Shown: positions 7,492 to 26,263 of the stretch, piece by piece
How positions within the stretch are numbered: position 1 is the first letter of the stretch
How the letters are laid out: the number at the start of each line of letters is the position of its first letter
NCBI GenBank assembly: GCA_963662525.1
Contig: OY759717.1
Span: 915,436 to 979,435 of the forward strand
From: Bacteroidales bacterium
Lineage (GTDB): Bacteria > Bacteroidota > Bacteroidia > Bacteroidales > FEN-979
Reading direction: 5' to 3'
Length of the DNA stretch: 64,000 nt
Translations under genes and position numbers: made by a program
Notes under the pieces: model-generated
Database searches by the model: none
Told to the model about the DNA's origin: nothing
What the model saw: the letters and a program-made list of their open reading frames with translations, nothing else

Positions 7492-7968
7492 ATGAAACAA
7501 TTATCATTTATTCTTATCGCACTGATAGGCTTATTTGCCTGTAATCAACCCAAGGAAAAAACGATTATGCACGAAGGAATGCAGGTGGATCAAACGGTTC
7601 CCGCATGCTGTGTGAAAGACGGTATTTTTATTCATATTTCAGCGGGCTATGATAACCCACATAAAGCGTTAATGCCACTGAAAATGGCCATGATGATGGC
7701 CAAGGATAAAGATGTTATCCTTTATCTCGATATTGAAGCCGTGAAAATGGTTTTAAAAGATTCCAAAGACATGAAATTTGCCGATTTCCCTCCGCTGAAA
7801 GAATTGTTGAAACATTTGATTGACGCCAAAATCACCATCATGGCTTGTCCGACATGTTTAAAAATAGCAGGGAAAACAGGAGATGACCTGATGCCTGGCG
7901 TCATGGTAGCTGAAAAAGAGAAATTTTTCAATTTCACCAAAGGAAGGATAATAACCCTTGACTATTAA
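7492..7968 (+). CDS. DsrE/DsrF-like family lipoprotein
   Basis: Lipobox LIGLFAC. The DsrE-like fold signature shows as GIFIHISAG...PLKMAMMMA...ITIMACPTCLKIAG. Confidence 0.55.
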   Translation: MKQLSFILIALIGLFACNQPKEKTIMHEGMQVDQTVPACCVKDGIFIHISAGYDNPHKALMPLKMAMMMAKDKDVILYLDIEAVKMVLKDSKDMKFADFPPLKELLKHLIDAKITIMACPTCLKIAGKTGDDLMPGVMVAEKEKFFNFTKGRIITLDY

Positions 7969-9698: not shown

Positions 9699-10211
9699 TT
9701 AAATGCGAAATTTTCGCATATCATCTTTCATTCGCTCCAAATCATTAATCCAGTCCTCAATATCCTGTTCATGTTCTGTTTCTTCATTCAGGATTGTAAC
9801 AGCCATTTGATGTGTAGTATGGTCTTTCCCGTTGGTAAAGTCGGCAATTTCTTTATACCGCTGGATGGCACAGCGCTCTCCCCTCAGGTTCTGGTTCAGA
9901 ATCACTTCTACATAAGGATCATGTGGAGCTTCATATTCACAACGGGCAAATTTTGGCCAGTCGGAAGGGTTCAGCAAAGGAGTACCTCCCAATTGAATGA
10001 TTCGTGTAACAACCAACACTGCATGTCCCAGTTCCTGGTTCGCGTGAATCAGTAATTCGGGCTCTATCTCAGAACGCATGGGGCCTTCCATCAAACGGGC
10101 ACCAATCCAGTACTGATAATATGCCAGCCACTCTTCAGCCAGTGCTTCATTAAGCATGCGAAGCAATTCCTCTTTATCGAGGTTCAGAATTTCAATGCCA
10201 TGTTTTCCCAT
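9699..10211 (-). CDS. Ferritin-like / Dps-like di-iron protein
   Basis: Four-helix ferritin-like motifs (EEWLAYYQYW, ANQELGHA, EETEHEQD). A minus-strand -7 box lies at about 10230 (caaagata on the + strand). Confidence 0.65.
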   Translation of the reverse strand: MGKHGIEILNLDKEELLRMLNEALAEEWLAYYQYWIGARLMEGPMRSEIEPELLIHANQELGHAVLVVTRIIQLGGTPLLNPSDWPKFARCEYEAPHDPYVEVILNQNLRGERCAIQRYKEIADFTNGKDHTTHQMAVTILNEETEHEQDIEDWINDLERMKDDMRKFRI

Positions 10212-10254
10212 GTCTGTTTTATTTAAGTAAAATCAAAGATACAATATTTCCGGT

Positions 10255-11073
10255 TTAATGAATCTGTCCGGAAGAAATCGAAAAAACTCCGGCCCCATTC
10301 TTCCGGGCAAGCTGCATTGCTTCCTGGTTTTGCATTATCGCCCCGCCCCAATGATTAAAATTAAAGATTTCAGGGGTATCAAACCAGTTCTCAATATTCA
10401 TGCGTAGATCGAATGACAGTGTTTCCCCCTTATAGATAGTAAAAGCTGAGGAAGGGAGGCTCACCGCAAAATAGTTCTGAACAAAAGCATAAATTGAATC
10501 AACATCATATGTTGTTCCGTGATATAATTGTCCGATCCCCAGATGAAAATTAAACAACTGGATAATCCCTGAGGTATCTTTCCATTTCCCATTAATCATC
10601 AAATAATGATAGCCTCCACCTAAAACCTCCGGCCAGAACATATTCACTTCAGGCGGATTGACAAACATGAACGACTTATTCTTTTCCTTTGATATCCCAA
10701 ATATAAAATTGATGGAATCATAATCTCCGGCAGGAATCGGATCAAAAATTTGAATGGTTTTTGATGTTGGTATATTTTCATCAATATAAAAAATATCCTT
10801 CCAGTCCTCTATCCGGGTATAAGTACCATCTGATTTATAAAAGGTGATGTCGGAAATGAAGTACATCAGGTCTGTGATCAGGTAGGGATTTCCTGCAGCG
10901 TTGGTATATATCAGCTCATTTTCACTTAACGGTAATCCGTTAACCAAATGATGAAAATTAAAAACAACCTTACCGGAAGGTGCCTCAGGAATGGGGTCAC
11001 TGCTTTTTTTACAGGAAGTAAAAAAAACTCCTGAAATAAAAAGAACACCTGTTATTAAATGAATGTAACCCAC
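10255..11073 (-). CDS. Lipoprotein, MbnP-like (putative periplasmic copper-binding) family
   Basis: Lipobox FFTSC. The pattern VVFNFHHLVNGLPL...YTNAAGNPYLITDLMYFISDI...GGGYHYLMINGKW fits my recollection of MbnP-family proteins. It lies directly downstream of a copper-type TonB receptor. Confidence 0.45.
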   Translation of the reverse strand: MGYIHLITGVLFISGVFFTSCKKSSDPIPEAPSGKVVFNFHHLVNGLPLSENELIYTNAAGNPYLITDLMYFISDITFYKSDGTYTRIEDWKDIFYIDENIPTSKTIQIFDPIPAGDYDSINFIFGISKEKNKSFMFVNPPEVNMFWPEVLGGGYHYLMINGKWKDTSGIIQLFNFHLGIGQLYHGTTYDVDSIYAFVQNYFAVSLPSSAFTIYKGETLSFDLRMNIENWFDTPEIFNFNHWGGAIMQNQEAMQLARKNGAGVFSISSGQIH

Positions 11074-11142
11074 AAACTCCTATTTAAAACGACTACAAAG
11101 ATCGTAAAGATTTAAACGGTTTAAATAAGAAAATACGATAGA

Positions 11143-13320
11143 TTAAAATTTCAGATTGACCGAAAAATAGAAGACCCTACCTGGTTCATACAGCCGATCA
11201 GTGCTCCCAACAATTCTCCGGTTCAGATGCTCATAATAGGGTGTATCCATAATATTTTCAACACCAGCAATAAAAGAAGCATATTTGCAGGGAGAATAGC
11301 TGAGGGAAGCAGCCCCGGTAATAAATCCCGGTGTTTTTTGTTCCCCATAGGATTCAGATACCCGGTTCTGTTCACTGACCATCCTGAGGGAAATCCTCGG
11401 AACCAGCTTGCTTTTAAAAAATTTATAAGAGAACTGAATAGTCCCCTCCAGTGGTGGAATTTCCGGCAATGGATCATTCTTAACCGTTTCCTGTCCGGTA
11501 ACCTGACCTCCGCTGACAATATATTTAATGGCCGTAGGTTGAGTCCCGTAGGTTGCAGCCACACTGGCCAGCACACCCCATTTTTTTGATATTGGCGACT
11601 GATAAGCCATTTCAAATCCGGTTAGATATACCAGGTCGACATTGGAAAATTGCTTCACCCCCGGTGAACCCTGGGTAGAGGGTTTGATTACTGAGGGTGG
11701 GATCACTTTCCCGATAATATAATCGGTGACCAGGGAGAAAAACCCTCCTGCTGAAATACTGCCGGCCTCTTTAAATACCAGGGCAAAAGATAGATCTGCC
11801 TGGTGATTTTTTTCAGGCTTTAACTGTGGATTGCCCAAATAGTCATAAGCATCGTACTGAACCGGCATTAGTTTAATGTACCTTTCAAGTACTGACGGGC
11901 TCCGGGTTCCCCTTCCGATTGAAGCATTGAGGTAAAGCCAGGATGTTATTTGCTTTTTTATTCCCAAACCAAAACTCACATTAAAAAATGCCGAGTTCAG
12001 CTCATCAAAATAATGAATATCATCTTTAACCAGGCGGAAAGTATCCCCTGAAGTTGCAGCATTATAATCAAACCTGAGCGAAGCCGTGAAATCAAAACTG
12101 GTAAAAGGAATCTGACATTCGGCAAATCCACCGATATTATTAATGACCGCGTTTCGCCAGACGTTTGCATGTTTGACAGAGATAAAGGTATCACCATCCA
12201 TCACCATTTTCATGCTCATTTGCTTATCCCCGTCCTTGAAAACATGCTCAAAATCCAGGCCCGGGTTTATTTTAATCTTTCCGGTTTGCAAATTACCAGT
12301 GAGCTTTCCTCCTGCATTCCATGCATCAACCGTGGTAACCGCTTGCATCGTTCTACTTGCCGGTCTGTTCAGATTATCCATCACATGATGTACCGGTGAA
12401 ATATATGCCTGAAGTTGCAGGGTTTGCCAGATTTTACCTAAGTTTTCAGCCTTGTAGTTGAATGAAGCAACCTGGGTCCTATCCAATCGTTCATCCATGG
12501 GTAGTGCAGGAAAAAGAACATTCTTCCCCTCATCATAGGCATAAGACAGGATTAGCTGATGATTCTGTTTGAAAACAAAGCCTATGCCTGCATTGAAATA
12601 AAGCTTCTGAAAAGAAGTATTATACAACTCATGATTCCCGGCCGTATAACTGCCATATCCTTTATACCCTCCGCTTGCATTGAAAAATACCCTGGAATTT
12701 CCGCCCCATAGGCTGATATGCTCTCTTTGACCGTTCCAGTTGGTTTCGAAACCATACAGCAATTCACCATGAAGCTCTGGTTTTGTATAGGGATGGGGCA
12801 ATACTGTTTTCAGATTGATCATGGCGCCCAATACCGGTCCGTATTTCAGCACATAAGGGCCCTTGATGATCTCTATTTCCCTGATATTTTCAGGCTCCAC
12901 ATGCGAAGCAACCGGATCCATGCGGTTTGGACAGCCACCTTCTATCTTCACTCCATCGTTCAGCAGTACCGTCACCTGGTTGTATTTGAATCCCCTGATT
13001 ACCGGGTCAATGGCTATTCCACCCTTACGAATCCCGGAAACATTGGGTTCCATGCGCAGAAAATCACCGATATCACGAATAGACTCATATTCTATCCGAT
13101 CTAATCGGATAACTTCTCCCGGAAAATATTTTGTTTTTTGTCCCATTATCTCAACTTCTCCAAGCTGAAGCGTGTCGCTGCTGATTTGCGACATTACCGG
13201 GTTTGACGGAAAAAAGAGACAGAAAAAAAACAGTAAAAAGACAATGAAAAAATAATTCCGGGACCGATCAATGGTGATGATCTTCACATCCCTTGTGTTC
13301 AGCGCAGGTTTGTCCACCAT
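11143..13320 (-). CDS. TonB-dependent receptor, OprC/NosA-like copper type
   Basis: Plug domain and barrel ending in ...VNLKF. Carries GGCPNRMDP (C130-x3-M134) and HHVM (H312-x-M314), the CxxxM plus HxM pair described for OprC, with similar spacing. Confidence 0.75.
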   Translation of the reverse strand: MVDKPALNTRDVKIITIDRSRNYFFIVFLLFFFCLFFPSNPVMSQISSDTLQLGEVEIMGQKTKYFPGEVIRLDRIEYESIRDIGDFLRMEPNVSGIRKGGIAIDPVIRGFKYNQVTVLLNDGVKIEGGCPNRMDPVASHVEPENIREIEIIKGPYVLKYGPVLGAMINLKTVLPHPYTKPELHGELLYGFETNWNGQREHISLWGGNSRVFFNASGGYKGYGSYTAGNHELYNTSFQKLYFNAGIGFVFKQNHQLILSYAYDEGKNVLFPALPMDERLDRTQVASFNYKAENLGKIWQTLQLQAYISPVHHVMDNLNRPASRTMQAVTTVDAWNAGGKLTGNLQTGKIKINPGLDFEHVFKDGDKQMSMKMVMDGDTFISVKHANVWRNAVINNIGGFAECQIPFTSFDFTASLRFDYNAATSGDTFRLVKDDIHYFDELNSAFFNVSFGLGIKKQITSWLYLNASIGRGTRSPSVLERYIKLMPVQYDAYDYLGNPQLKPEKNHQADLSFALVFKEAGSISAGGFFSLVTDYIIGKVIPPSVIKPSTQGSPGVKQFSNVDLVYLTGFEMAYQSPISKKWGVLASVAATYGTQPTAIKYIVSGGQVTGQETVKNDPLPEIPPLEGTIQFSYKFFKSKLVPRISLRMVSEQNRVSESYGEQKTPGFITGAASLSYSPCKYASFIAGVENIMDTPYYEHLNRRIVGSTDRLYEPGRVFYFSVNLKF

Positions 13321-13633
13321 CAGATATGTCTCCCTTGATAAAGTTAATAACTACTTCCTCAGCCGGGCCTGAACAGCCTCTTATAACAGTAATCCCCCTG
13401 GAAGCAAGGTGGCTGATCGCCCCTGCACCAATATTCCCGGCAAGCATAACCGTCACTTCTTCTTTAGCCAACTGGTCGGCAATACCGGATTTACATCCAC
13501 ATCCTTCTTCTGCCTGTATCAGCCCACGCTTTACGATTTCTTTGTCCTGGGAGATGGTAAATATAGCATAACTTTCTGAGTGTCCAAAATGCTCATTGAT
13601 GAAACCATGATGGAACGGAACTGCAATTTTCAT
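13268..13633 (-). CDS. NifB/NifX/NafY-domain (FeMo-cofactor-binding fold) protein with His-rich tail
   Basis: MKIAVPFHHGFINEHFGHSESYAIFTIS..., GAGAISHL, and C-terminus ...HKGCEDHHH. It overlaps the receptor start by 53 nt. Confidence 0.7.
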   Translation of the reverse strand: MKIAVPFHHGFINEHFGHSESYAIFTISQDKEIVKRGLIQAEEGCGCKSGIADQLAKEEVTVMLAGNIGAGAISHLASRGITVIRGCSGPAEEVVINFIKGDISDGGQTCAEHKGCEDHHH

Positions 13634-13634
13634 A

Positions 13635-13961
13635 TTAAGTATTTTTATTGGTCAATAATAGAATAATATCTTTTACCTGAATCTGCTTCTCAGGGTGAAT
13701 AATCATCTGGATATGTTTTTCATTCAAAGATTTTTGAACATGGGTACCAAAATCGCCTGCAATCACTCTGCCAACATTCTTTTCCCAAAGCTTTTCGACA
13801 ATGATGCAACCCGGACATCCCTTCATGCCTTTCCCTGGATTTTCTATAATTTCGGTTGTTTCTTCTACATCATTATAGATAAAAAAATGCGAACATTTGC
13901 CGAAATGTTGATCTATGATAGCATCCTCATAAGCACTTTGAGAAGAAATTGCAGTTTTCAT
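13635..13961 (-). CDS. NifB/NifX/NafY-domain protein
   Basis: IIDQHFGKCSHFFIYN... and ...VIAGDFGTHVQ are typical of the small NifX-like family. Confidence 0.65.
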   Translation of the reverse strand: MKTAISSQSAYEDAIIDQHFGKCSHFFIYNDVEETTEIIENPGKGMKGCPGCIIVEKLWEKNVGRVIAGDFGTHVQKSLNEKHIQMIIHPEKQIQVKDIILLLTNKNT

Positions 13962-13966
13962 AATCC

Positions 13967-14383
13967 TTAAATATTATCATTAATCATTTCAATATCGACA
14001 GCATTACATAGCGGACATTCATTTACTGAAGGTTCATTCTCGGTTTTATTAAAAAAAACACCACATGTCCGGCAATGAAACCAATCATGATCAAACCAGG
14101 CATGACCCTTTTCCACCTCAATTGTTCTGGCTTCAGCCAAAGCCTGTGCAATTTTCCTCCTGGCACTTTCATATAATCGGGTAAAAGTTGGCCTTGAAAT
14201 ATTCATCGTCTGAGCAGCCTGTGATTGAGTCATCAACTCGTAATCACATAACTTGATGGAGGTATATTCTTCAAACAACAGTATTACCGACTCATTCTTT
14301 CCGGCATAATATCCGTAAGGCCTGAATCCCTTAAACTTCGGAGGATCAAAAACCGTACGGATATTTCTTGGGCGAGGCGACAT
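13967..14383 (-). CDS. DUF134 (UPF0251) HTH protein with C-terminal zinc ribbon
   Basis: MSPRPRNIRTVFDPPKFKGFRPYG, sigma-region-4-like HTH (TQSQAAQTMNISRPTFTRLYESARRKIA) and CRTCG...CPLCN. Confidence 0.75.
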   Translation of the reverse strand: MSPRPRNIRTVFDPPKFKGFRPYGYYAGKNESVILLFEEYTSIKLCDYELMTQSQAAQTMNISRPTFTRLYESARRKIAQALAEARTIEVEKGHAWFDHDWFHCRTCGVFFNKTENEPSVNECPLCNAVDIEMINDNI

Positions 14384-14419
14384 AGGATTGGTTCATACTT
14401 GCAAAAGTATAAAATTTAA

Positions 14420-14460
14420 ATGAACAAATGTTCATTATGAACAAATGTTCATTATCTTTG
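14420..14460. promoter_or_regulatory. Tandem operators ATGAACAAATGTTCATT x2 plus -7 box, in the divergent DUF134 / nifX-like intergenic region
   Basis: TGAAC-AAAT-GTTCA occurs at 14421-14434 and at 14438-14451 as an exact 17-nt direct repeat. TATCTTTG (TAnnTTTG) lies at 14453-14460. A minus-strand box (CAAAAGTA) lies at 14402-14409. Confidence 0.75.
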
Positions 14461-14489
14461 CATAATAATATTTTTCAAATTCATAAAAA

Positions 14490-14810
14490 ATGAAGATTGC
14501 AATTGCTTCTGCAGGAAATACTCTTGATTCAAAGGTTGATCAACGTTTCAGTCGCTGTTCATATTTCGCCATTTTTGACCTGGTGACCGATTCTGTTGAA
14601 TTTATTGAAAATCCGAATAAAGAAGCCCTGAACGGAGCTGGACCTGCTACGGTTCAACTTGTCGCTTCCAAAGGGATTCAGAAAATCATCTCTGGCGAAT
14701 TTGGCGTAAAAATCAAACCTATACTTGATAATCTTAAAATACAAATGATTGTCAATCAGGAATCTGAAAAAAGTATTCAACAAATAATTGAATTATTAAA
14801 AAAATCATAA
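14490..14810 (+). CDS. NifB/NifX/NafY-domain protein
   Basis: MKIAIASAGNTLDSKVDQRFSRCSYFAIFD... and ...IISGEFGVK. Confidence 0.7.
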   Translation: MKIAIASAGNTLDSKVDQRFSRCSYFAIFDLVTDSVEFIENPNKEALNGAGPATVQLVASKGIQKIISGEFGVKIKPILDNLKIQMIVNQESEKSIQQIIELLKKS

Positions 14811-14811
14811 T

Positions 14812-14991
14812 ATGCCACATCTGAATGGTACTGGCCCCGAAGGACAAGGTTCCGGAACAGGCCGTGGATTAGGAAAGTGCAAAAAAGCACCGGAAAAGGA
14901 AGCCTTACAAAAATTAGGGAAAGGCATAGGCAAACGTCGCAATGCAGGAGGAGGTAAAGGCAAAGGGAAACGTTTAAAAAGCGGACAATAA
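14812..14991 (+). CDS. DUF5320-like small Gly/Lys-rich protein (59 aa, below the ORF-track cutoff)
   Basis: Hand translation gives MPHLNGTGPEGQGSGTGRGLGKCKKAPEKEALQKLGKGIGKRRNAGGGKGKGKRLKSGQ. The MP..GTGP.G.G..TGRG.G.C start is typical of DUF5320. Confidence 0.55.
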   Translation: MPHLNGTGPEGQGSGTGRGLGKCKKAPEKEALQKLGKGIGKRRNAGGGKGKGKRLKSGQ

Positions 14992-15016
14992 GTATTTATT
15001 CAACAATCAAATTATT

Positions 15017-15265
15017 ATGCCAGGATTAAATCAAACAGGCCAGATGGGACAAGGTCCGATGACAGGTTTCAGAATGGGTCGCTGCTCAAAATTTGTAGCA
15101 AATTTCAAAAATGAAACCACTGATTCCATCGAAAGACCAGTTAAAAACCAGACAGAAAATTTTCCCGATAACGGTTTTTCATCCGGAGAAGGAAGAGAAT
15201 TTGGCCGGGGTTTTGGAAGAGGTCATGGAATGGGGCGGCAAAATCGGTTCAGGGATGGGTCTTAA
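15017..15265 (+). CDS. DUF5320-like small protein
   Basis: MPGLNQTGQMGQGPMTGFRMGRC... with a GRGFGRGHGMGR tail. Confidence 0.6.
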   Translation: MPGLNQTGQMGQGPMTGFRMGRCSKFVANFKNETTDSIERPVKNQTENFPDNGFSSGEGREFGRGFGRGHGMGRQNRFRDGS

Positions 15266-15329
15266 TTTACACATCGAGACTGAAGTGTCTCCCTTATTTT
15301 AAATTCTACACTTTTAATATATAATAACG

Positions 15330-15698
15330 ATGATAAAACGTATTGCTATCCCTATGGAAAATGGGGTTTTATGTGCTCATTTTGGCCATTGCCAAACTTT
15401 TGCCATTGTCAATGTTGAAAACGACATCATTACAGATATCAAAGAAGTTGAACCTCCTGAGCATGTTCCGGGATTATATCCACGCTGGATTGCTCAATTT
15501 GGCGTTACGGATGTTATTGCCGGAGGGATGGGACAACAGGCAATCATGTTATTCAACCAACAAAATATCAATGTTTTTGTAGGAGCACCGGTAAAAAAAG
15601 CGGAAGAACTGGTTAGCGATTTCACTGCCAATAAATTGGATCTGAACGCCAATTATTGCAATCATGACCATTCCGGGCATACCCATCACGGGCATTAA
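15330..15698 (+). CDS. NifB/NifX/NafY-domain protein with His-rich tail
   Basis: RIAIPMENGVLCAHFGHCQTFAIVNVEN, VIAGGMGQQA, and C-terminus NHDHSGHTHHGH. Confidence 0.7.
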   Translation: MIKRIAIPMENGVLCAHFGHCQTFAIVNVENDIITDIKEVEPPEHVPGLYPRWIAQFGVTDVIAGGMGQQAIMLFNQQNINVFVGAPVKKAEELVSDFTANKLDLNANYCNHDHSGHTHHGH

Positions 15699-15704
15699 TC
15701 TTTT

Positions 15705-16580
15705 ATGAAAATTGCCATTGCCAGTGGTAAAGGGGGAACCGGAAAAACCCTTATTTCTACCAATATTTTTTATTCCCTGCTGCTGAATCATTACAGGCCT
15801 TTGCTGGTTGATTGTGATGCTGAAGCACCCAATGCCATAGCTTTCTTTGAAACGATCCTGGAAAAAACGATAGAAATAACCCAACAGGTCCCGGTGATCG
15901 ATACCACAATTTGTACGTTTTGTGGAAAATGTCATGAATACTGTAACTACAACGCTATATTTTTTCTTCCCTACATGAAGATCATTCAGGTCGCTGAAGA
16001 ACTTTGTCATGGATGCGGTGCCTGCAGTGTTGCCTGTGGTTACGGAGCCATTACTGAAAAACCCGTTTCACTTGGTCAAGTTTCATTATATACGCTGAAT
16101 GGCATTCCATCCCTGGTCGAAGCAAGAATGAATATTGGAGGCATGACTCCGGTCCCGCTGATTAAAGGAGCATTAAAACAAATCCATTCTGATACGGAAA
16201 TTACCATTCTTGATTCCCCGCCAGGAACTTCCTGTCCGTTCATCACCACTGTCTCGGCGGCTGATTATGTCATCCTGGTCACTGAACCAACCCCATTCGG
16301 GCTGAGTGATTTAAAACAAAGTGTTGATACGCTGAAACAACTTGACAAGCCCTGCGGAGTCATTATTAACCGTGCTGGTTTGGGAAATAAATCCGTTCAT
16401 CAGTACCTGGAACAGGAAAATATCCCGCTTTTACTCGAAATCCCATTTGATAAAAGAATTGCCGAAACATACGCCAGGGGACAGTTGGTGATTGAAACCC
16501 AACCCTTGCTCGGTGAACAGTTATATATGACAGTCAAAACAATCATGGAACAACATGGAAATAGCAGTCATCAGCGGTAA
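15705..16580 (+). CDS. MinD/ParA-type P-loop ATPase with inserted 4Fe-4S ferredoxin domain
   Basis: KIAIASGKGGTGKT deviant Walker A, with CTFCGKCHEYC and CHGCGACSVAC inserts. Confidence 0.75.
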   Translation: MKIAIASGKGGTGKTLISTNIFYSLLLNHYRPLLVDCDAEAPNAIAFFETILEKTIEITQQVPVIDTTICTFCGKCHEYCNYNAIFFLPYMKIIQVAEELCHGCGACSVACGYGAITEKPVSLGQVSLYTLNGIPSLVEARMNIGGMTPVPLIKGALKQIHSDTEITILDSPPGTSCPFITTVSAADYVILVTEPTPFGLSDLKQSVDTLKQLDKPCGVIINRAGLGNKSVHQYLEQENIPLLLEIPFDKRIAETYARGQLVIETQPLLGEQLYMTVKTIMEQHGNSSHQR

Positions 16581-17415
16581 AGGAGGCACCGGAAAATCAA
16601 GTATCAGCGCAGCATTGGCAACTTTAAGTGAATGCGTGATGATTGCAGATTGTGATGTGGATGCGGCCAATCTTTACCTGCTGTTTAACCCGACCCATGA
16701 AGAAGAAATAGTTTATATCGGGGGACACAAAGCAAAACTTGATGGCACGAAATGCAACAATTGCGGAATTTGTCTTGAATATTGTCGTTTTGATGCTATT
16801 TCCCGGATCCAGGAAAGAATTACTATTTCGCCGACTGCCTGCGATGGTTGTTTTCTTTGCTCCCGTATTTGTCCGCAAAATGCCATAAACATGATACAGA
16901 ATGATCAAAGCCGTTTATATTCCGGTTCCTTCCGAAATGGAAAAATGGTTTATGGTCGTCTTGCTCCTGGTGAAGAAAATTCCGGGAAACTGGTAAATAT
17001 GGTCCGTGAAAAAGCGAAAAAGATAGCCAAAGAAAATCAGTTGAATACCATAATCCTTGATGGCCCCCCGGGCATCGGATGCCCGGTCATTTCAACCATT
17101 ACTGGCGTTGATCAGGTGATCATCGTGACGGAACCAACAATATCCGGGTTACACGACATGCAAAGAACCTATGCAGTCGTTCAGAAATTTAGCTTGAAAT
17201 CCCGGGTCATTATTAATAAATTCGATTTAAATCATGCGTTGAGCAATACCATCGATTTATGGTGTAAAGAACAGGAAATTCCTGTTATTGGATATCTGCC
17301 ATTTGATAAGCAAGTGGTAGAAGCCATGGTTCAAGGGATGACCATCATAGAATGGGCACCGGAACAGGAAATCAGTAAAATAATTAGACAAATCTGGAGT
17401 TACATACAAAACTAA
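16555..17415 (+). CDS. MinD/ParA-type P-loop ATPase with inserted 4Fe-4S ferredoxin domain (paralogue)
   Basis: EIAVISGKGGTGKSS, CNNCGICLEYC and CDGCFLCSRICP. It overlaps the upstream paralogue by 26 nt. Confidence 0.75.
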   Translation: MEIAVISGKGGTGKSSISAALATLSECVMIADCDVDAANLYLLFNPTHEEEIVYIGGHKAKLDGTKCNNCGICLEYCRFDAISRIQERITISPTACDGCFLCSRICPQNAINMIQNDQSRLYSGSFRNGKMVYGRLAPGEENSGKLVNMVREKAKKIAKENQLNTIILDGPPGIGCPVISTITGVDQVIIVTEPTISGLHDMQRTYAVVQKFSLKSRVIINKFDLNHALSNTIDLWCKEQEIPVIGYLPFDKQVVEAMVQGMTIIEWAPEQEISKIIRQIWSYIQN

Positions 17416-18213
17416 ATGATCATGAGTCAACTTTTTGAAAAAATCCCCATGGAAGGGGTAAAAAACATTATCGTTATTGCCTCCGGCAAAGGGGGTGTAG
17501 GTAAATCTACGGTAGCAGCCAACCTGGCTATCGCCCTGGCCCGGAACGGATTTAAAACAGCCCTGGTGGATGCTGATATTTATGGACCATCTATTCCGAA
17601 AATGTTCGGTATTGAAGATGCCAGGCCGGATGTAAGTGCCATTGGCGACAAAGAAATGATGTACCCCATTGAAAAGTTTGGAGTGAAGATCATGTCGATC
17701 GGGTTCTTTGTAGCACCTCATCAATCCTTGATCTGGAGAGGTCCTATGGCCTCCAATGCCATCATGCAATTATTCGAGAATACCCAATGGGGAGATATCG
17801 ATTATATGATTATCGACTTCCCTCCGGGAACTGGCGATATCCAGCTTACAACGGTTCAAAAACTGAATCTTACCGGTGCCATTATGGTGACCACTCCCCA
17901 GGAAATTGCCGTAAATGATGCCCGTAAAGCTGCTTCTATGTTTCTCAATCCGGATCTGAAAGTGCCGGTTCTGGGCATCATAGAGAACATGTCGTGGTTT
18001 AGCCCGGAAAAGCATCCGGAAGAACAGTATTTCATTTTCGGTCAGGGAGGCGGTCTGAAAATGGCCAAAGAATTCAACACCAAATTACTGGGTCAAATTC
18101 CACTGGTCATGGAAGTCGGTGAAGCTGCCGAACAGGGCAAGAGTGTTTTCAGTCAGCGCAATAACACTGTTGTCAAAGCATTTGAGAAAATCGCCGAAGC
18201 TATTATTTCTTAA
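17416..18213 (+). CDS. Mrp/NBP35/ApbC-family Fe-S cluster carrier ATPase
   Basis: VIASGKGGVGKSTVAANLA, DADIYGPS, MIIDFPPGTGD. The ATG follows the upstream TAA directly. Confidence 0.8.
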   Translation: MIMSQLFEKIPMEGVKNIIVIASGKGGVGKSTVAANLAIALARNGFKTALVDADIYGPSIPKMFGIEDARPDVSAIGDKEMMYPIEKFGVKIMSIGFFVAPHQSLIWRGPMASNAIMQLFENTQWGDIDYMIIDFPPGTGDIQLTTVQKLNLTGAIMVTTPQEIAVNDARKAASMFLNPDLKVPVLGIIENMSWFSPEKHPEEQYFIFGQGGGLKMAKEFNTKLLGQIPLVMEVGEAAEQGKSVFSQRNNTVVKAFEKIAEAIIS

Positions 18214-19363
18214 CGCTTTTGGCTGACTGGATCAGGTTGGAAAAATAAATAGCAAAGGGACGATAAGCCAGATGCGACCATTTCGAAAAGGGAACTTCGA
18301 TCATCAACATGGGAAACAGGATCATCAGGTGGATGACATAAATGTAATAGGTGGCCATGACCATCCCGTTTACCCTGAAAATATGAACCAGAATTCCGGT
18401 AAGGGCTGTCAGGAAAAGCAGGATCAGAAAAGTCCAGTCAGTATAATGTGAAACTTTCGACTTCTCATTCTCTTTTTTCATACGAAGCACAGAGAAATAA
18501 ACAACCCCAAATACGAGTCCGAAAGTTGTATAATATCCTAAAAGCCTTTGTGGGTGCCACCAGGCATGGATTGTATCGGTCTGGAACCACCCCAGGAAAC
18601 CCACGATCATCGTAAACAGCATAACGTAACTCGACATCAGTAAAAAATGGATGATCCAATAATTCAGTTTCCCACTTTTTACTTTCTCATAAAATGATAT
18701 CTTCTCCGTTTCACACTCAACAAGTCTCCATTGAGAAGCAAAATGAAAAACCAATTTTCCAAATTCAGTGAAATACAATTTATAAGGAATCACTAAATCT
18801 TTCTGGCTTAACACAATCTTCCGGTACATATTAAAAACATTCGACAATAAAAAAAAGGATAATAGCCCTGCCATGATCCAATCTCCCATCTCGATGATCT
18901 GCCATGGGGCAAACGTATTCAACTTCACGCCTCCCTGTTCAGTCAACGCTTCAGTCATGGGACCATGAAAAAAAATAAACAGGAAAAGGATCAGCAGCGA
19001 AAGAAAAGCAATCGCTCCTAACTCCCAGATTTTTGATGTATAGAATTTTTTCGACAAACCCGTCCAATCATAGGATCCTGTCAGGTACCTGCGCATAGCC
19101 ATCATCAGCTGCCCGGGATCGGCATTCCGCGGACAGGTCTCGGTACATTCCCCACAGTAATAGCATAACCAGGGATCAACCGAAGATTCAAGCTCATCTT
19201 TCAGCCCTAAAAGACTATATCTTAATGTTTTCCTTGGGAAAGAATTTTTTTCATCAGAAAGAGAGCAGATCGCCGTACAATTTCCACAGTTATAGCAAGC
19301 ATTAAAATCCCCGGCTCCGTATTTCCGGATCTCATCGGCAAAAAATGGGTCAATCATTGACAT
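18203..19363 (-). CDS. QmoC-like fusion of an HdrC-type 2x[4Fe-4S] domain with an HdrE/NarI-like membrane domain
   Basis: N-terminal CYNCGNCTAICS and CYYCGECTETCP, followed by about 6 TM helices containing conserved His. Confidence 0.65.
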   Translation of the reverse strand: MSMIDPFFADEIRKYGAGDFNACYNCGNCTAICSLSDEKNSFPRKTLRYSLLGLKDELESSVDPWLCYYCGECTETCPRNADPGQLMMAMRRYLTGSYDWTGLSKKFYTSKIWELGAIAFLSLLILFLFIFFHGPMTEALTEQGGVKLNTFAPWQIIEMGDWIMAGLLSFFLLSNVFNMYRKIVLSQKDLVIPYKLYFTEFGKLVFHFASQWRLVECETEKISFYEKVKSGKLNYWIIHFLLMSSYVMLFTMIVGFLGWFQTDTIHAWWHPQRLLGYYTTFGLVFGVVYFSVLRMKKENEKSKVSHYTDWTFLILLFLTALTGILVHIFRVNGMVMATYYIYVIHLMILFPMLMIEVPFSKWSHLAYRPFAIYFSNLIQSAKSVKK

Positions 19364-19369
19364 CAGGAT

Positions 19370-21382
19370 TTATTTTTTGAGTTGATAGCGATAATACTCG
19401 TCATTATCATCCATTCCGGCAGGTTCAAGTAGGAAATATTTGTTCATGGTCATCATATGCCAGGTCACCAGTTCTGCCGGAATTGAAATTGCTTCTGCAA
19501 CCTGGCGTATCGTCCTGGGCTCATTATCTTTTAAGGTATCTATGATAGAACGCCATATAGATGGAAAGTCTTTCATTCCATGCCCTGATTCCATCTCTGA
19601 TTCTGTACCGTTTTCACCTTTACTCTTCAGATCGACCGCTTTCATAAATCCATCAATCATGCCTTCAATTTCATCATTGGTAAACTGAGCAAGATCGATG
19701 GCATCTATCGGACAAACGGGGGTACACATTCCACAACCCTTGCAAACGGCTTCATTGACCGAAGCCACAACTTTGCCATTGGTTTCCATCTGAAAGATGG
19801 CATCAAATTCACATACATCCTGGCATTTCCCGCAATAATTGCAACTTTCGGCATCAATCCTTGCAATGATGGGTTCTAATTCGAGGGTTCCTTTCCGGAT
19901 GATTGCGTTAATTTTGGCTGCTGCTGATAAGGAAGACTGAACTGACTCTGAGATGTTCTTCGGTCCCTGGCATGATCCTCCCAGGAAAATGCCATTGATG
20001 ACTGTCTCAACAGGCCGGAGCTTAGGATGAATCTCATTAAAGAATCTATCGTTGCCCATGGGAATTTTTAATTTTCCGGCCACATCAGAGCTATCAGATC
20101 TGGGAATCATACCATTAACCAGAATAAGCAGATCTACCAGGATATCCATTTCCTTCTTTTCGGTCAGGTAATCCCTGATCTTTATCCGCACACCTCCTTG
20201 TTCTGCTGTCGCCTGGGGAGGATCTTTCTCCTGGTACATCAGGTAAATATCGCCAAGCCTGGATGATTTTTCAAAGAGGATTTCCTGCTTGCCATAAGTC
20301 CTGATATCACGATACAGATGAAATGCTTTGATTCCGTTGAATTTTTCATGCATGCTGATGGAAGAATGGATGGCAGCAGTACAGCAAACCCTGGAGCAGT
20401 ATTTATTTTCACCCTTGGTCTGACGCATTCCTACACAATAAATATAGGCAACAGAACGAACGACTTTTCCATCAATTTTCAAGTTTCCATGAGAAGATTT
20501 GACCAACTTGTCAAAATCATTGATAGTAAGTATACTGGGGCTGGTTCCAAAGCCATATTCTTTTTCCAATGGCTGATAGGATTCATATCCGGTGGTCACC
20601 AGAATAGCACCTGCAGTAAGATTTAATACTTCTTCCTTCACGCCCTTTACATTTACATCTATCTTGAAATTTCCCAGGCTGCCACTCACTTTTACTACCT
20701 GAGCTGAAGTGAACAAGGTAATATTGGCTTGTTTACGTATTGTTTCGAGAAGGGTATCGATCAATTTCTGTCCTTCTTCATTGATCGGGAATAATTGACC
20801 TTTTCCCGCAAGACTTCCTCCAACCTGGTCTTCTTTCTCTATCAGGTAAACCTGATTTCCCATCCTGCCAAGATCGATGGCTGCACGCAAGCCGGCAACT
20901 CCTGCCCCTATGATAAGCACAGTTTTATGAGCAGTGATTTTAATATTTTCGAGTGCCTCTGAATGAGCCACTCGTCTGATTCCCGCCCTGATCAGCCCGG
21001 CTGCCTTATAAGATGCCTGATCCGGATGATCGGAGTGCGCCCATGAACATTGTTCTCGAACATTTACCTGAACATAGTTGTACGGATTTAATCCGGCCCG
21101 TTCAGTCACTCCCCTGAAAGTATGAAGGTGAAGTTTAGGAGAACAGGATGCTACCACGATTCCGTCAAGTTTCTGCGCCTGTATATCCTTCACCATTTCC
21201 TTCTGGTTGGAGTCTGCACAAGCGAACATGACGTTCTTGGAAACGACCACACCTTCTTCATCTCCGGCTATATCACGCAGTTGCTCAACATCCACATAAT
21301 CGGAAATATTTCCGCCACAGTGGCAGATATAGACCCCTATCCTTTGTTTTTTGGTTTTATCTTCCATAATCTGTTGGTTCAT
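19370..21382 (-). CDS. hdrA: HdrA-type heterodisulfide reductase flavoprotein subunit
   Basis: N-terminal domain RIGVYICHCGGNISDYVDV...VVASCSPKLH...REQCSWAH, FAD site VLIIGAGVAGLRAA, YIYCVGMRQ...YCSRVCC, and C-terminal CNYCGKCQDVC / CKGCGMCTPVCP. There is an extra ~100-aa tail. Confidence 0.75.
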   Translation of the reverse strand: MNQQIMEDKTKKQRIGVYICHCGGNISDYVDVEQLRDIAGDEEGVVVSKNVMFACADSNQKEMVKDIQAQKLDGIVVASCSPKLHLHTFRGVTERAGLNPYNYVQVNVREQCSWAHSDHPDQASYKAAGLIRAGIRRVAHSEALENIKITAHKTVLIIGAGVAGLRAAIDLGRMGNQVYLIEKEDQVGGSLAGKGQLFPINEEGQKLIDTLLETIRKQANITLFTSAQVVKVSGSLGNFKIDVNVKGVKEEVLNLTAGAILVTTGYESYQPLEKEYGFGTSPSILTINDFDKLVKSSHGNLKIDGKVVRSVAYIYCVGMRQTKGENKYCSRVCCTAAIHSSISMHEKFNGIKAFHLYRDIRTYGKQEILFEKSSRLGDIYLMYQEKDPPQATAEQGGVRIKIRDYLTEKKEMDILVDLLILVNGMIPRSDSSDVAGKLKIPMGNDRFFNEIHPKLRPVETVINGIFLGGSCQGPKNISESVQSSLSAAAKINAIIRKGTLELEPIIARIDAESCNYCGKCQDVCEFDAIFQMETNGKVVASVNEAVCKGCGMCTPVCPIDAIDLAQFTNDEIEGMIDGFMKAVDLKSKGENGTESEMESGHGMKDFPSIWRSIIDTLKDNEPRTIRQVAEAISIPAELVTWHMMTMNKYFLLEPAGMDDNDEYYRYQLKK

Positions 21383-21388
21383 TTCTCC

Positions 21389-24142
21389 TTACACCCCATT
21401 CCCACTTAAATAAGCTGCTACTTCAGATGCTGCTGCTCCCGCAGATAAAATGGAATCAGGAATATCCATGGGAGCGGCTGCCGTGCCTGCAACAAATACA
21501 CCTTTCATGCTGGTCCTGCTTGGATTTAGCATCAATTCCGGTTGTTTGATATAGCGGAATTCATCTAAAAGCGGCGACTCGCTTTTAAAGGAACGCATCA
21601 CACCATTATCAGGTAAAACCCCCACAGAAAGAACCACCAGGTCATGGGTGAATTCTTTCACTTTACCGGTTTCAATATTTTCCACTCGAAGTGCCAGATC
21701 TCCGCTGTGATTCTCCTTCTCGTTGATGCTGGAGACTTTTCCCTTAATAAAGTTAATCCCCATGGATTTCGACTGCTGATAAAATTCCTCATATCCTTTA
21801 CCGAAGGCACGGATATCAATATAATAGATGGAGATATCAGCCATGGGTAGCGCCCCCATCAGTAATTGTGCCTGTTTGATCGAGTACATGCAGCATATCT
21901 GTGAGCAGATGGGATTGTTAACCGCGGCTAGGTTGCAGCTTCGGAAATTCTCGAGACTACTGTCACGCGATCCGGTACATAAAATATAGGCAATATTCCC
22001 GGGTGCCTTGCCATCGCCGGGACGCAGAACATTATTATAAGGACGCGTAGGAGCAATGATCCTGTCCATCTGCAGGGAATCAATTACATTGGCAAATCTT
22101 ATAGAATTATATTGTGGCTTATGTTCAGGTTTGAAAAGCTGGAATCCTGATGCAATAATTACAGCGCCCACATGAGCTTTGACTTTTTCTGTTTTCTGTG
22201 AGAAATCTATAGCAAAAGCTGGACAGGCGGAAATACATTGATGACACTCCCGGCAATTGCTGCAATCAAGGCAGCGTAACGTACTCTGGTGAACTTCTTC
22301 CTCTGTGAAAGTCAACTCTACTTCTTCGAAATCCTGGATCCTTTCTGCAACAGGCCTGACTTTGTCACTCAAAGCTGGCTGATGTAAAATACCGGGCCTG
22401 GATAAAATAGTATTTTTATCGATTGCCGGAAGCTTATCTCCGAATTCATAATTACCCAGGTCAAGTCCCTGCAAATATTTATCTATATAATACGCTGCTC
22501 TTTTACCCTGACCTGCTGCTTCTATGATCGTACTTGAACCGCTAACCGAATCACCACCGGCAAAAAGCCAGGAAAAGGAACATTGCATCGTATTGGAATC
22601 GACTTTTATCCGGCCATCTTTTTCCAGATCCAATTCCTTTTTGAATGGAGAAGTGGTTGGGTATAAACCGATAGCCTCAATCACCAGATCAACATCTTCG
22701 GTATATTCCGAACCTTTAACTTCCACCGGTTTTTTCCTGCCACTGGCATCCGGTTCACCTAATTTCATCTTGATCATTACTGCCTGGCTGATCTTTCCAT
22801 CTGTTCCGGAAAAACTTATTGGATTTCTAAGCAGCTGAAAAACAACACCTTCATCTTCTGCTTCCCTGATCTCTTCTTTCCATGCCGGCATCTCTTCCCG
22901 GCTTCTGCGATAAATAATGGATACTTTTACAGTCCCCAGTCTCATGGCAGTACGGGCCGAATCCATGGCAGTATTCCCACCGCCAATAACCATTACTTTC
23001 TTTCCCTTCAGATTGATTTTTGTACCGATTTTTGAATCTCTCAGGAAATCAAGACAAGAAACTACCCCCTTCATTTCGCTTCCGGGGATATTCAGCTTGC
23101 TGGTCTGATGCGTTCCGACTGCAATAAAAATCGCATCAAAACCTGATTCTTTTAATTCCTTTAAATGTTCAACCGGGTGATTGCATGCGATTTCAACACC
23201 AAGAGCAGTAATATTTTCAATATCCCGATCGACCACGGTGTTAGGCAGACGATATTCAGGGAGGGTCAGCTTCAACATTCCTCCAGCTTCCGGAGCGGCT
23301 TCATAAATTTTTACCTGGTGGCCGTTCAGCGCGAGATGATATGCTGCAGTAAGTCCTGCCGGACCAGAACCTACAATAGCAATTTTTTTTTCGCTTGTTT
23401 TTTCAATGCTTTTTCTAGATGCTGCCGGATATTTAGTATAATAATTTTCTGTAAAAAATCTTTTTATCCTGCGGATATCCACAGGAGCTTCAAGGCTTGC
23501 CCGTGTACATTCTCCCTGGCAGGGAGCATAACACGCACGGCCAAGGCTGCCGGGTATCGGAATATCCTCCATATGAAGGTGAAAAGCTTCTTCATATTGG
23601 CCGTTTCTAACGAGAGAAATATATCCATACGGTTTAACGCCACCGGGACAGGCAGCAATGCAGGGGGCAGAAGTATCCTGCCGATCAATGAATGCAATGC
23701 GGGGACTCGCGAGACTGAATGGGATATAAGCCACTTTCCGGCCTGCCAGGTGATGATTGTATTCATCAGAGCGAACTTCAGGACAGGCCAATTCACACTC
23801 CTGACAACCCGTGCATGACTCTGGTTTGACGTATCTGGGATGTTTTGTAATTTCCAAATGAAAGCCTTTGTCATTTCTGGTAATGTTATCCAGGTCACTA
23901 CCCATCATCAGGGTAATATTGGAATGTCTGGCTGTTTCAGACATTTTCGGAGTCGTGATACAGGCGGCACAGTCCAGTGTAGGAAAAACCTTGCTTAATT
24001 GTATCATCTTACCTCCTATCGACAGGTCTTTCTCTACCAATAAAACCTGGTAGTCCATATTGGCCAGCGTTAATGCGGCCTCCTGGCCGGCAATACCACC
24101 ACCGATCACCAGTACATCAAATTTTTTTTCCTGATTGTTCAT
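21389..24142 (-). CDS. HdrL-like large HdrA homologue with inserted GltD/NfnB-type NAD(P)H module
   Basis: HdrA N-terminus FDVLVIGGGIAGQEAA and core YILCTGSRD...ICSQICCMY are split by a GltD-like block (CIAACPGG..., KIAIVGSGPAGLTAAYHL, VMVIGGGNTAMDSARTA, YRRSREEMPAWKEE). Confidence 0.7.
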   Translation of the reverse strand: MNNQEKKFDVLVIGGGIAGQEAALTLANMDYQVLLVEKDLSIGGKMIQLSKVFPTLDCAACITTPKMSETARHSNITLMMGSDLDNITRNDKGFHLEITKHPRYVKPESCTGCQECELACPEVRSDEYNHHLAGRKVAYIPFSLASPRIAFIDRQDTSAPCIAACPGGVKPYGYISLVRNGQYEEAFHLHMEDIPIPGSLGRACYAPCQGECTRASLEAPVDIRRIKRFFTENYYTKYPAASRKSIEKTSEKKIAIVGSGPAGLTAAYHLALNGHQVKIYEAAPEAGGMLKLTLPEYRLPNTVVDRDIENITALGVEIACNHPVEHLKELKESGFDAIFIAVGTHQTSKLNIPGSEMKGVVSCLDFLRDSKIGTKINLKGKKVMVIGGGNTAMDSARTAMRLGTVKVSIIYRRSREEMPAWKEEIREAEDEGVVFQLLRNPISFSGTDGKISQAVMIKMKLGEPDASGRKKPVEVKGSEYTEDVDLVIEAIGLYPTTSPFKKELDLEKDGRIKVDSNTMQCSFSWLFAGGDSVSGSSTIIEAAGQGKRAAYYIDKYLQGLDLGNYEFGDKLPAIDKNTILSRPGILHQPALSDKVRPVAERIQDFEEVELTFTEEEVHQSTLRCLDCSNCRECHQCISACPAFAIDFSQKTEKVKAHVGAVIIASGFQLFKPEHKPQYNSIRFANVIDSLQMDRIIAPTRPYNNVLRPGDGKAPGNIAYILCTGSRDSSLENFRSCNLAAVNNPICSQICCMYSIKQAQLLMGALPMADISIYYIDIRAFGKGYEEFYQQSKSMGINFIKGKVSSINEKENHSGDLALRVENIETGKVKEFTHDLVVLSVGVLPDNGVMRSFKSESPLLDEFRYIKQPELMLNPSRTSMKGVFVAGTAAAPMDIPDSILSAGAAASEVAAYLSGNGV

Positions 24143-24537: not shown

Positions 24538-24645
24538 GTTTTTAATTATAAATACCTCACCCGGGAAAGTTTTAGCGATCAACCTTCTGCTTCATTTTAT
24601 AAATGAACAAGGAAAAAATAATGGAGGTATCCGGGTGAGGAAAAA

Positions 24646-24897
24646 TTATGCTTTCTTAAGAAACAGTCGGGAGTAACTATCTTCTTCAACAATACCAAGG
24701 TATTCATGACTCATCTTCTGGCACCATCTGGGAATATCTATTTTTGTACCTTCATCAGCAGAATAAATCTCCATAATTTCACCGGATTCTATTTCCCCAA
24801 TGGCTTTCTTGGCAGCCAATAATGGTCCAGGACAGGCAGTACCACGTGCATCAACAATTTTATTCGATTTTAGATTTTTTAATTCTTCTAAGCTCAT
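24646..24897 (-). CDS. tusA: TusA-family sulfurtransferase
   Basis: VDARGTACPGPLLAAKKAI (CPxP motif) in an 83-aa protein. Confidence 0.8.
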   Translation of the reverse strand: MSLEELKNLKSNKIVDARGTACPGPLLAAKKAIGEIESGEIMEIYSADEGTKIDIPRWCQKMSHEYLGIVEEDSYSRLFLKKA

Positions 24898-24914
24898 TAT
24901 GTATTCTCCTTATA

Positions 24915-26244: not shown

Positions 26245-26263
26245 TGATTATTATACCCGTTAA

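Follow-up and report, generated by a model that had tools for sequence, protein, structure and literature searches.

Introduction

The ORP (orange protein) complex is conserved over anaerobic Bacteria and Archaea. It was described more than ten years ago, yet the literature has not settled on its physiological role. In Desulfovibrio vulgaris Hildenborough its genes are described, in the parts of the ORP literature that we consulted, as the cluster orp3-4-5 / orpR / orp7-8-9 (DVU2103-2109). In this study we analysed a 64,000-nucleotide stretch of a Bacteroidales genome (lineage FEN-979; GenBank assembly GCA_963662525.1, contig OY759717.1, positions 915,436 to 979,435 of the forward strand), which is called the window below and to which coordinates refer unless another locus is named. 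Judging from homology to the ORP proteins, a locus of ten genes at 13268-18213 is very likely the Bacteroidales form of this anaerobe-specific gene cluster.

The ORP complex comprises, as far as the consulted parts of the literature go, the MinD-like proteins Orp3 and Orp4, which carry two [4Fe-4S] motifs each, the PF02579 proteins Orp5 and Orp8, and Orp9, which is MrpORP. The same sources place its function in the positioning of the septum or Z-ring during cell division, a role that they term putative and awaiting confirmation. MrpORP passes Fe-S clusters to Orp3 and Orp4, and Orp8 (ORP) non-covalently holds the Mo-Cu-S cluster [S2MoS2CuS2MoS2] (PMC6345978). The orp operons are activated in a redox-dependent manner by OrpR, a [4Fe-4S]-PAS sigma54 enhancer-binding protein.

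A second described system with a PF02579 domain is IssA of Pyrococcus furiosus (PF2025), which stores thioferrate. Its thioferrate-binding tail is unstructured, cationic and rich in glycine and aromatic residues, and it carries the only cysteine of the protein; MTH1175 has been assigned to the IssA clade (PMC5524996).

Results

Gene content of the locus

The ten genes form two divergent groups around a 106-bp intergenic region; the labels NifX-1 to NifX-4, DUF5320-a and -b and MinDFer-1 and -2 are our own. On the minus strand lie DUF134 (PF02001; 13967-14383; 71.1 bits against a Pfam gathering cutoff of 27), then, after 5 bp, NifX-2 (PF02579, MTH1175 type; 13635-13961; 49.7 bits) and NifX-1 (PF02579, HFGH type; 13268-13633; 65.7 bits). 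The plus strand carries NifX-3 (PF02579; 14490-14810), which its PDB matches place with the MTH1175/TM1290/ORP (Orp8, IssA-clade) type, followed by DUF5320-a (PF17253; 59 amino acids (aa); 14812-14991; 39.6 bits against a cutoff of 27), DUF5320-b (PF17253; 82 aa; 15017-15265; 36.7 bits) and NifX-4 (PF02579, HFGH type by its NCBIfam NF041136 match and motifs; 15330-15698). Two CbiA/MinD-family MinD-ferredoxin ATPases come next, MinDFer-1 (type A, Orp4/Orp3-like; 15705-16580) and MinDFer-2 (type B, Orp3/Orp4-like; 16555-17415), and the group ends with a Mrp/ApbC-like P-loop ATPase (PF10609; 17416-18213; 309.8 bits). A listing of open reading frames (ORFs) combined with a Pfam scan showed that all ten ORFs pass the gathering scores at these coordinates. 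An earlier sequence-only reading of this DNA had named the same ten genes and the operator-bearing region between them; all of them are real, and its coordinates were right. This holds also for the 59-aa DUF5320 gene, which scores above the Pfam cutoff and has hundreds of homologues of about 60 aa, in the same gene order elsewhere.

The four PF02579 proteins appear to fall into two subtypes, one related to ORP, MTH1175 and IssA (NifX-2 and NifX-3) and one of the HFGH type (NifX-1 and NifX-4). The top PDB match of NifX-2 was MTH1175. NifX-3 matched MTH1175 (1.6e-12), TM1290 (2.3e-11) and the ORP of D. gigas (2wfb; 5.8e-8). NifX-1, which has the tail CAEHKGCEDHHH, matched TM1816 and PH0822. NifX-4 aligned to the MrpORP equivalog model NF041136 with 112.6 bits over model positions 265-364, which is the C-terminal domain. 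Its motifs CAHFGHCQ ... CNHDH, together with a His-rich tail, correspond to CxHFGHC and C-x-H of the MrpORP Di-Nase domain (PMC6345978), so that NifX-4 may be described as the free-standing counterpart of this C-terminal domain. The two His-rich tails reported before (...CEDHHH and ...HDHSGHTHHGH) were both found in the translations.

Both MinD-ferredoxin ATPases contain a P-loop and an inserted ferredoxin domain with two CxxCxxCxxxC ([4Fe-4S]) motifs, and MinDFer-1 has in addition an invariant DxD and PPGxxCP. The Mrp-like protein has the deviant Walker A motif GKGGVGKS. It reached 266.9 bits over positions 2-249 of NF041136 (cutoff 450) and 291.9 bits with the ApbC model (cutoff 348). The matches to NF041136, the match of NifX-3 to 2wfb and the Orp3/4-like pair are the reasons for assigning the locus to the ORP cluster. 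The gene set had been said to have no assigned function. Since its core is the published ORP cluster, this does not stand as worded, and the published function that the same reading had named as the finding that would overturn it is in part at hand. The broader idea of a machine for assembling or trafficking metal clusters fits the biochemistry of the homologues; what falls is the description of the gene set as uncharacterised.

A role in nitrogenase cofactor synthesis was also considered for the NifX-like proteins and rejected, because no nif genes were found among the window ORFs of at least 150 aa and the equivalog scores lie far under the cutoffs (TIGR02663, nifX, 16.9 against 112; TIGR01290, nifB, 19.8 against 343). 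On these ORFs, the absence of nitrogenase genes stated before was borne out.

The Mrp-like ATPase lacks cysteines

The Mrp-like protein contains no cysteine at all; it has WFSPEKHPEE in place of the CPxCG motif. Among 34 module-associated Mrp proteins that were aligned, those of Desulfobacterota, other bacteria and Archaea kept the CPxCG following ENMS, whereas all 14 module copies of the Bacteroidota type had W[FY][ST]PxxHP[DE]E in its place. These Cys-motif-free loci include, besides the window, L009, L010, L012, L015-L017, L019, L021, L022, L025 and L051 (L numbers denote the related loci). The CPxCG was also absent from three copies of Dehalococcoidia. In the Mrp family the CxxC ligates a bridging [4Fe-4S] cluster, for which it is described as essential (PMC6345978). 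As it is missing here, the protein cannot be classified as a canonical Fe-S carrier, and its previous designation as a Mrp/NBP35 Fe-S carrier has to be dropped. The conservation of the replacement motif suggests that the protein is nevertheless likely to be functional. Perhaps it works as an ATPase together with NifX-4, the free Di-Nase protein.

The module recurs across phyla

A scan of one genome per species with an alignment of MinD-ferredoxin proteins gave 80 loci. They belong to several archaeal lineages and, among Bacteria, to Bacteroidota, Desulfobacterota, Chloroflexota, Planctomycetota and other phyla, the phylum labels being those of metagenome-assembled genomes (MAGs), some of which may be mis-binned. 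Cultured carriers are Mangrovibacterium marinum DSM 28823 (L016), Plebeiibacterium marinum (L025), Maribellus (L034) and Geofilum (L032). Hidden Markov models built from the window and the related loci were then scored on all ORFs. Among the 49 loci with full flanks, the tandem MinD-ferredoxin pair was present in 46, at least one NifX-like gene in 47 and at least two in 39. DUF134 and DUF5320 were found in 24 of them each, and a Mrp-like gene in 23. The recurring order is DUF134, NifX (~105 aa), DUF5320 (~60 aa), DUF5320 (~80 aa), NifX (~112-124 aa), MinDFer, MinDFer, and it is identical in L006-L008. Co-occurrence and gene order had been proposed as a check on whether the genes form a conserved unit, and on this point the module, recurring across phyla with its pair nearly always present, agrees with what was expected.

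In loci of Desulfobacterota, fused proteins of the MrpORP type (402-491 aa) were found at the same position, and enhancer-binding proteins with GAFTGA flank the module in L059 and L071. These fusions and GAFTGA proteins link the Bacteroidales form to the Desulfovibrio form. Variable inserts occur in or after the module (L006 6844-8907; L008 7215-8563 and 10673-12133; L007 8714-9064). The insert genes of these three loci encode an ARMT1-like protein (DUF89), a Zip metal permease, a CGGC-domain protein, a radical SAM protein and the Fe-dependent enzyme peptide deformylase.

Palindromic operators in Bacteroidetes-type promoters

The intergenic region between DUF134 and NifX-3 contains two perfect tandem copies of ATGAACAAATGTTCATT (14420-14453). 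They hold two predicted 16-bp palindromic operators, ATGAACAAATGTTCAT, at 14420-14435 and 14437-14452, which are conserved upstream of DUF134 in other genomes. On the minus strand, a -7 box of the Bacteroidetes type, TACTTTTG, was read from the sequence at 14402-14409 for the DUF134 operon, and the site at 14420-14435 lies 10 nt upstream of it. On the plus strand the -7 box TATCTTTG (14453-14460) begins directly after the second operator. An extra operator half-site, ATTGGTTCATA, is located at 14387-14397, between the minus-strand -7 box and the start codon of DUF134.

Two further sites lie elsewhere in the window, both on the plus strand. A third operator, again ATGAACAAATGTTCAT (25624-25639), is followed by the -7 box TATTTTTG (the composite spans 25624-25647) upstream of an operon at 25729-29746, which encodes a CobA/BtuR-like P-loop protein, an ArsP_2 permease, HdrC-like and HdrB-like (CCG) proteins and a CDF exporter. 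A fourth, ATGAACTTTTGTTCAT (29778-29793), has one mismatch and the same box TATTTTTG (composite 29778-29801), and a 1-Cys peroxiredoxin gene (29839-30537) lies downstream of it. The four operator sites compare with 0.53 expected by chance, and all four have an exact TGAAC-N4-GTTCA core. Directly after three of the four (14437, 25624 and 29778) stands TAT[CT]TTTG; we take TAnnTTTG to be the consensus of the Bacteroidetes -7 element in Bacteroides promoters. The composite of operator and -7 box was also observed in many Bacteroidota loci. In L003, whose DUF134 is 67% identical to that of the window, the CobA-like operon is divergent from DUF134 and has the same operator. The two additional operator-marked units suggest a local DUF134 regulon.

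In 27 of 39 loci, perfect palindromes of the form TG(N3)-N4-(N3')CA were found at most 150 nt from the start of DUF134. Their density near the start was 4.27 per kb compared to 0.094 per kb elsewhere, a 45-fold enrichment in 1.06 Mb of related loci. For this count the operator was defined as 5-N4-5; a stricter definition, ATGA...TCAT with a fully palindromic centre, recovered only 9 of the 39 loci. The variants of the operator follow lineage: the window clade has the core TGAAC..GTTCA, the core TGAGAATATTCTCA occurred 9 times, TGAGCATATGCTCA was found in Zixibacteria and Dehalococcoidales, and TGCACATATGTGCA in Calditrichaceae. The residue that precedes the invariant Arg of the DUF134 recognition helix, T67 in the window protein, was Thr in 13 of 13 proteins with TGAAC arms and Ala in 10 of 10 with TGAGA arms, a covariation that is suggestive of a tie between DUF134 and the palindrome. 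Module genes are preceded by the operator also in loci with no DUF134 gene nearby.

We consider it probable, on these comparative grounds, that DUF134 is the operator-binding regulator of the locus. The operators lie in the spacer/-33 region of Bacteroidetes promoters, which is a repressor-like position, so that DUF134 most likely acts as a repressor. A scan with Rfam at the gathering threshold gave no riboswitch or other RNA element at 7-32 kb of the window, and a scan for sigma70 promoters and terminators stayed at background level, with a method that is unsuited to Bacteroidota.

DUF134 and a candidate sensor

In DUF134, a helix-turn-helix (HTH) domain similar to those of sigma70 region 4 and DeoR precedes a Cys4 ribbon (C103, C106, C122 and C125) at the C-terminus. 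The CxxC-x15-CxxC set was near-invariant in 41 homologues. An AlphaFold2 (AF2) model had a predicted local distance difference test (pLDDT) score of 81.5 overall and above 94 in the HTH region, and a small beta-rich Cys4 region follows the HTH. With this model, Foldseek returned no full-length relative from the PDB; its matches were confined to the HTH and had E > 0.07. A profile search against the PDB yielded a DeoR HTH (7e-4) and weak matches to zinc ribbons. In the literature searched we found no functional study of DUF134 (UPF0251, COG1342, PF02001) and none of DUF5320 or COG1149, and the ORP literature searched does not cover DUF134, DUF5320 or the operator.

A profile search of 1.84 billion representatives yielded 4,757 DUF134 clusters at E <= 1e-3. 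Among the best 150 of these 4,757 representatives, 29 were single-chain fusions of DUF134, the Cys ribbon and a PF02579 domain, and Pfam confirmed this architecture in eight of ten that were tested. The DUF134-PF02579 fusion proteins include P0367, P0374, P0379, P0388, P0396, P0408, P0432 and P0453. All four NifX subtypes of the window were represented in such fusions. P0374 joins a DUF134 much like that of the window to a NifX-2-type domain (38.7% identical over 106 aa), and is thus a one-chain equivalent of the adjacent window genes DUF134 and NifX-2; P0432 joins DUF134 to a NifX-1-type domain (45% identical). This is the architecture of one-component regulators, from which we infer that the NifX-like domain is probably the sensor of DUF134. 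By the same comparison, we propose that NifX-2 may be a sensor or ligand-binding partner of DUF134.

In L008 (2260-5659), two DUF134-NifX pairs enclose a ferritin gene and a 1-Cys peroxiredoxin gene, and the first pair has an AhpC-family gene upstream of it. Ferritin and peroxiredoxin are associated with DUF134 outside the window, too.

DUF5320 resembles the tail of IssA

DUF5320-a has an isoelectric point (pI) of 10.9, 29% Gly and one Cys; DUF5320-b has a pI of 10.2, GRGFGRG repeats and likewise one Cys. Common to the family is the N-terminal motif MPxxDxTGPxGxGPxTGRxxGxC with one invariant cysteine, after which Gly/Arg/aromatic repeats follow, with a coiled coil in the long forms. Most members have a pI of 9.5-11.9. 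NifX-3 ends 2 bp upstream of DUF5320-a, and L017 carries a natural 168-aa fusion of a NifX-3-type protein with DUF5320. Many NifX proteins of Desulfobacterota have Gly/Arg/Met-rich tails and a coiled coil.

The compositional criteria published for the IssA clade are a pI of at least 9, fewer than five Cys and at least 20% Gly in the last 40 residues (PMC5524996). NifX-3 alone falls outside them (pI 7.8, 5% Gly), whereas both a virtual fusion of NifX-3 with DUF5320 and the natural fusion of L017 fall within.

Neighbouring genes

Directly downstream of NifX-1, on the minus strand at 9699-13320, are genes for a TonB-dependent receptor, an MbnP-like protein and a Dps-like ferritin. They probably belong to the DUF134 transcription unit, because of a 53-bp overlap and gaps of 44-70 bp, and are probably co-regulated with the DUF134 operon. 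The receptor had been called copper-type; TonB-copper is indeed its top NCBIfam match, but it reached only 217 bits against a cutoff of 472.

On the other side lies an operon on the minus strand at 18203-25460 that encodes DsrE2, TusA, an MvhD/HdrA C-terminal-like protein, a 917-aa HdrA/GltD, a 670-aa HdrA and a QmoC-like membrane subunit (200 bits against a cutoff of 300). It is a sulfur-relay and Hdr/Qmo-like electron-transfer complex. The complex does adjoin the locus, as the sequence-only reading had it, and its genes are real, but it is convergent with the module, with an 11-bp 3' overlap, and is not conserved beside the module elsewhere. A link between the module and maturation of this complex, which that reading had also drawn, goes back to adjacency alone and is not retained.

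The first 31 kb of the window are unusually rich in genes for sulfur trafficking and Fe-S proteins. At 54-4363 and 7492-7968 there are a cysteine desulfurase-like protein (Aminotran_5), an HdrD-like protein (Fer4 and CCG) and another DsrE-like protein. A gene of the Crp/Fnr family (30870-31577) is situated just downstream of the peroxiredoxin site. Further away, at 42208-45957, genes for a lysine 2,3-aminomutase-like radical SAM protein, two ATP-grasp proteins (D-Ala-D-Ala ligase-like) and a GNAT acetyltransferase may constitute a pathway for a beta-lysine-derived compatible solute or peptide. A STAS protein, a response regulator-SpoIIE phosphatase and a histidine kinase at 48736-55230 form a partner-switching/two-component set, which is adjoined by a 1028-aa nSTAND1 NTPase with WD40 repeats.

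Discussion

A model for the Bacteroidales ORP locus

Taken as a whole, the model of a Bacteroidales form of the ORP cluster that is regulated by DUF134 and serves the storage and trafficking of metal sulfide is one that we favour on balance. A DUF134 dimer would bind the palindrome ATGAACA-N2-TGTTCAT and repress transcription, autoregulating DUF134, NifX-2 and NifX-1 and probably the genes for the TonB receptor, the MbnP-like protein and Dps. The divergent operon from NifX-3 to Mrp would be under the same control, as would the operon for the CobA-like protein, the permease, the HdrCB-like proteins and the CDF exporter, and the peroxiredoxin gene. Loading of the adjacent NifX-like protein with metal and sulfur would modulate the binding of DUF134 to DNA.

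The remaining steps are less certain. The NifX-like proteins might hold or scaffold Fe-S or other metal-sulfide species, and the cationic, Gly/Arg-rich DUF5320 peptides with their single Cys might serve in trans in the way of the thioferrate-binding tail of IssA. Loading, release or positioning could be driven by ATP and redox state through the MinD-ferredoxin pair and the Cys-less Mrp-like ATPase. The overall result would be storage and trafficking of Fe-S (metal sulfide), linked to the import and export of metals and to defence against peroxide. For the specific version, in which Fe-S or metal sulfide is stored and trafficked with IssA-like tails in trans, our confidence falls a little short of an even chance. 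More speculative, and in our judgement rather unlikely to be right in full, is a general reading in which DUF134, together with a fused or adjacent NifX-like domain, makes up a widespread and so far unrecognised class of transcription factors (~4,700 representative clusters) that sense metal-sulfur clusters and that in Bacteroidota govern an IssA-like storage machine with a DUF5320 tail peptide, loaded and emptied by ATPases of the Orp3/4 type.

Several observations weigh against the model. Every DNA-binding and sensing role given here to DUF134 and NifX is comparative. No perfect palindrome was found in 12 of the 39 DUF134 loci, several of which have imperfect ones; the covariation of helix and operator is confounded by phylogeny, because essentially two clades are compared; and DUF134 at times occurs without NifX (L090). 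On the side of DUF5320, the resemblance to the IssA tail is one of composition only, no fusion to DUF5320 was found among the 120 nearest NifX-3 homologues, and the only fusion to a NifX-3-type protein (L017) comes from a MAG. As the Mrp-like ATPase has no CxxC, the Fe-S transfer mechanism of MrpORP is not directly transferable. Finally, the hypothesis for ORP in the parts of its literature consulted is cell division, not storage, and the metal could be Fe, Mo/Cu or other.

The question of the metal leads to an alternative, in which the system handles a heterometal sulfide (Mo/W-Cu-S), or detoxifies thiometallates or copper, and does not store Fe-S. NifX-3 is related to ORP (Orp8), which binds [S2MoS2CuS2MoS2], the DUF134 operon runs on into the receptor with TonB-copper as its top match and then the MbnP-like protein, and the CDF and ArsP_2 exporters stand under the same operator. 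We nevertheless consider this unlikely. MTH1175 of the IssA clade is a nearer relative of NifX-3 than ORP is. The TonB-copper score stays far under its cutoff, and the association with TonB and MbnP is not general across loci. Moreover, genes for ferritin, Zip and Fe-dependent enzymes occur in other loci, and the locus contains no genes for Mo/W transport or molybdopterin.

We give an equally low probability to a reading of the module as a positioning system of the MinD/ParA type, acting in cell division or chromosome segregation, in which the Fe-S domains are only redox inputs. Both MinD-ferredoxin ATPases do belong to the MinD/ParA superfamily, MrpORP is found at the cell pole, and Orp3 and Orp4 have MinD-like C-terminal amphipathic helices (PMC6345978). 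However, neither the locus nor the related loci examined contain division or segregation genes, the module is always accompanied by cluster-binding PF02579 proteins, and the division role of ORP is itself called putative and still unconfirmed in the parts of the literature consulted. The genes that appear to be co-regulated encode metal import and export proteins, a Dps-like ferritin, a peroxiredoxin and Hdr-like Fe-S proteins, which argues for metal-sulfur homeostasis rather than cell division.

Least probable is that a Crp/Fnr-family regulator, such as the product of 30870-31577, binds the palindromes, with DUF134 as a passenger or in some other role: the 5-N4-5 geometry of TGAAC-N4-GTTCA resembles that of FNR-type sites, and another Crp/Fnr-family gene lies 4 kb from DUF134 in L089, but the palindrome tracks DUF134 across phyla (27/39 loci, 45-fold), its sequence shifts in step with the DUF134 recognition helix, no Crp-family gene appears in the gene tables of L003-L008 (5-6 kb on each side of the query gene), and the site is at the spacer/-33 and not at an activator position.

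The ORP core is known; what is new here is the DUF134-NifX-operator-regulon model, which as a comparative proposal is well supported, together with the DUF5320 hypothesis and the Cys-free Mrp. These are first functional hypotheses for DUF134, as a cluster-responsive regulator with a NifX-like sensor, and for DUF5320, as an IssA-like tail in trans. The conserved cysteine-free Mrp variant cannot work like known Fe-S carriers. The present variant of the ORP cluster also offers a simple regulatory handle, with a small HTH protein and its predicted 16-bp operator standing where the Desulfovibrio cluster has sigma54, IHF and an enhancer-binding protein. If the model is true, thioferrate-type Fe-S storage would extend from hyperthermophilic archaea to common anaerobic Bacteroidota, and the general reading of DUF134 and NifX-like proteins given above would provide the ORP complex with a concrete physiological role.

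Comparison with known systems

The window Mrp-like ATPase shares PF10609 and the deviant Walker A motif with the Mrp/NBP35/ApbC carriers; it differs from them in having neither the CxxC, nor any Cys, nor a DUF59 domain.

With IssA the locus shares the PF02579/IPR003731 domain, NifX-3 being a candidate member of the IssA clade through its top PDB match, MTH1175, and a cationic, Gly-rich, aromatic-containing and disordered segment with a single Cys, which is here DUF5320. In IssA this tail is on the same polypeptide, whereas here it is a separate gene with its own N-terminal motif. IssA forms thioferrate nanoparticles and is induced by sulfide or S0; the present module is known from genes alone.

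The likeness to the ORP cluster extends to the two tandem MinD-like ATPases with two [4Fe-4S] ferredoxin motifs each, to several single-domain PF02579 proteins, one of which is of the ORP/Orp8 type (NifX-3), and to the content of a Mrp/NBP35-like ATPase and a Di-Nase domain. Both have two divergent operons around a shared regulatory region, and both are confined to anaerobes. In contrast to the ORP cluster, the two-domain MrpORP is here split into the separate NifX-4 and Cys-less Mrp-like genes, and two DUF5320 genes are present that the ORP literature searched does not mention. The regulator also differs, being DUF134 with a promoter-proximal palindrome and not sigma54, IHF and OrpR; translation of the window in all six frames showed no GAF[TS]GA motif, and the intergenic region has no GG-N10-GC.

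Like OrpR, DUF134 is a dedicated regulator encoded in the cluster and predicted to act on both divergent operons via palindromic sites, and sensing by a metal cluster is plausible for the DUF134 system too. The two belong to unrelated families with unrelated mechanisms: OrpR is an upstream sigma54 activator, whereas DUF134 overlaps the promoter and is probably repressing. The sensor of OrpR is its PAS domain; for DUF134 we propose that this part is taken by the NifX-like domain or protein.

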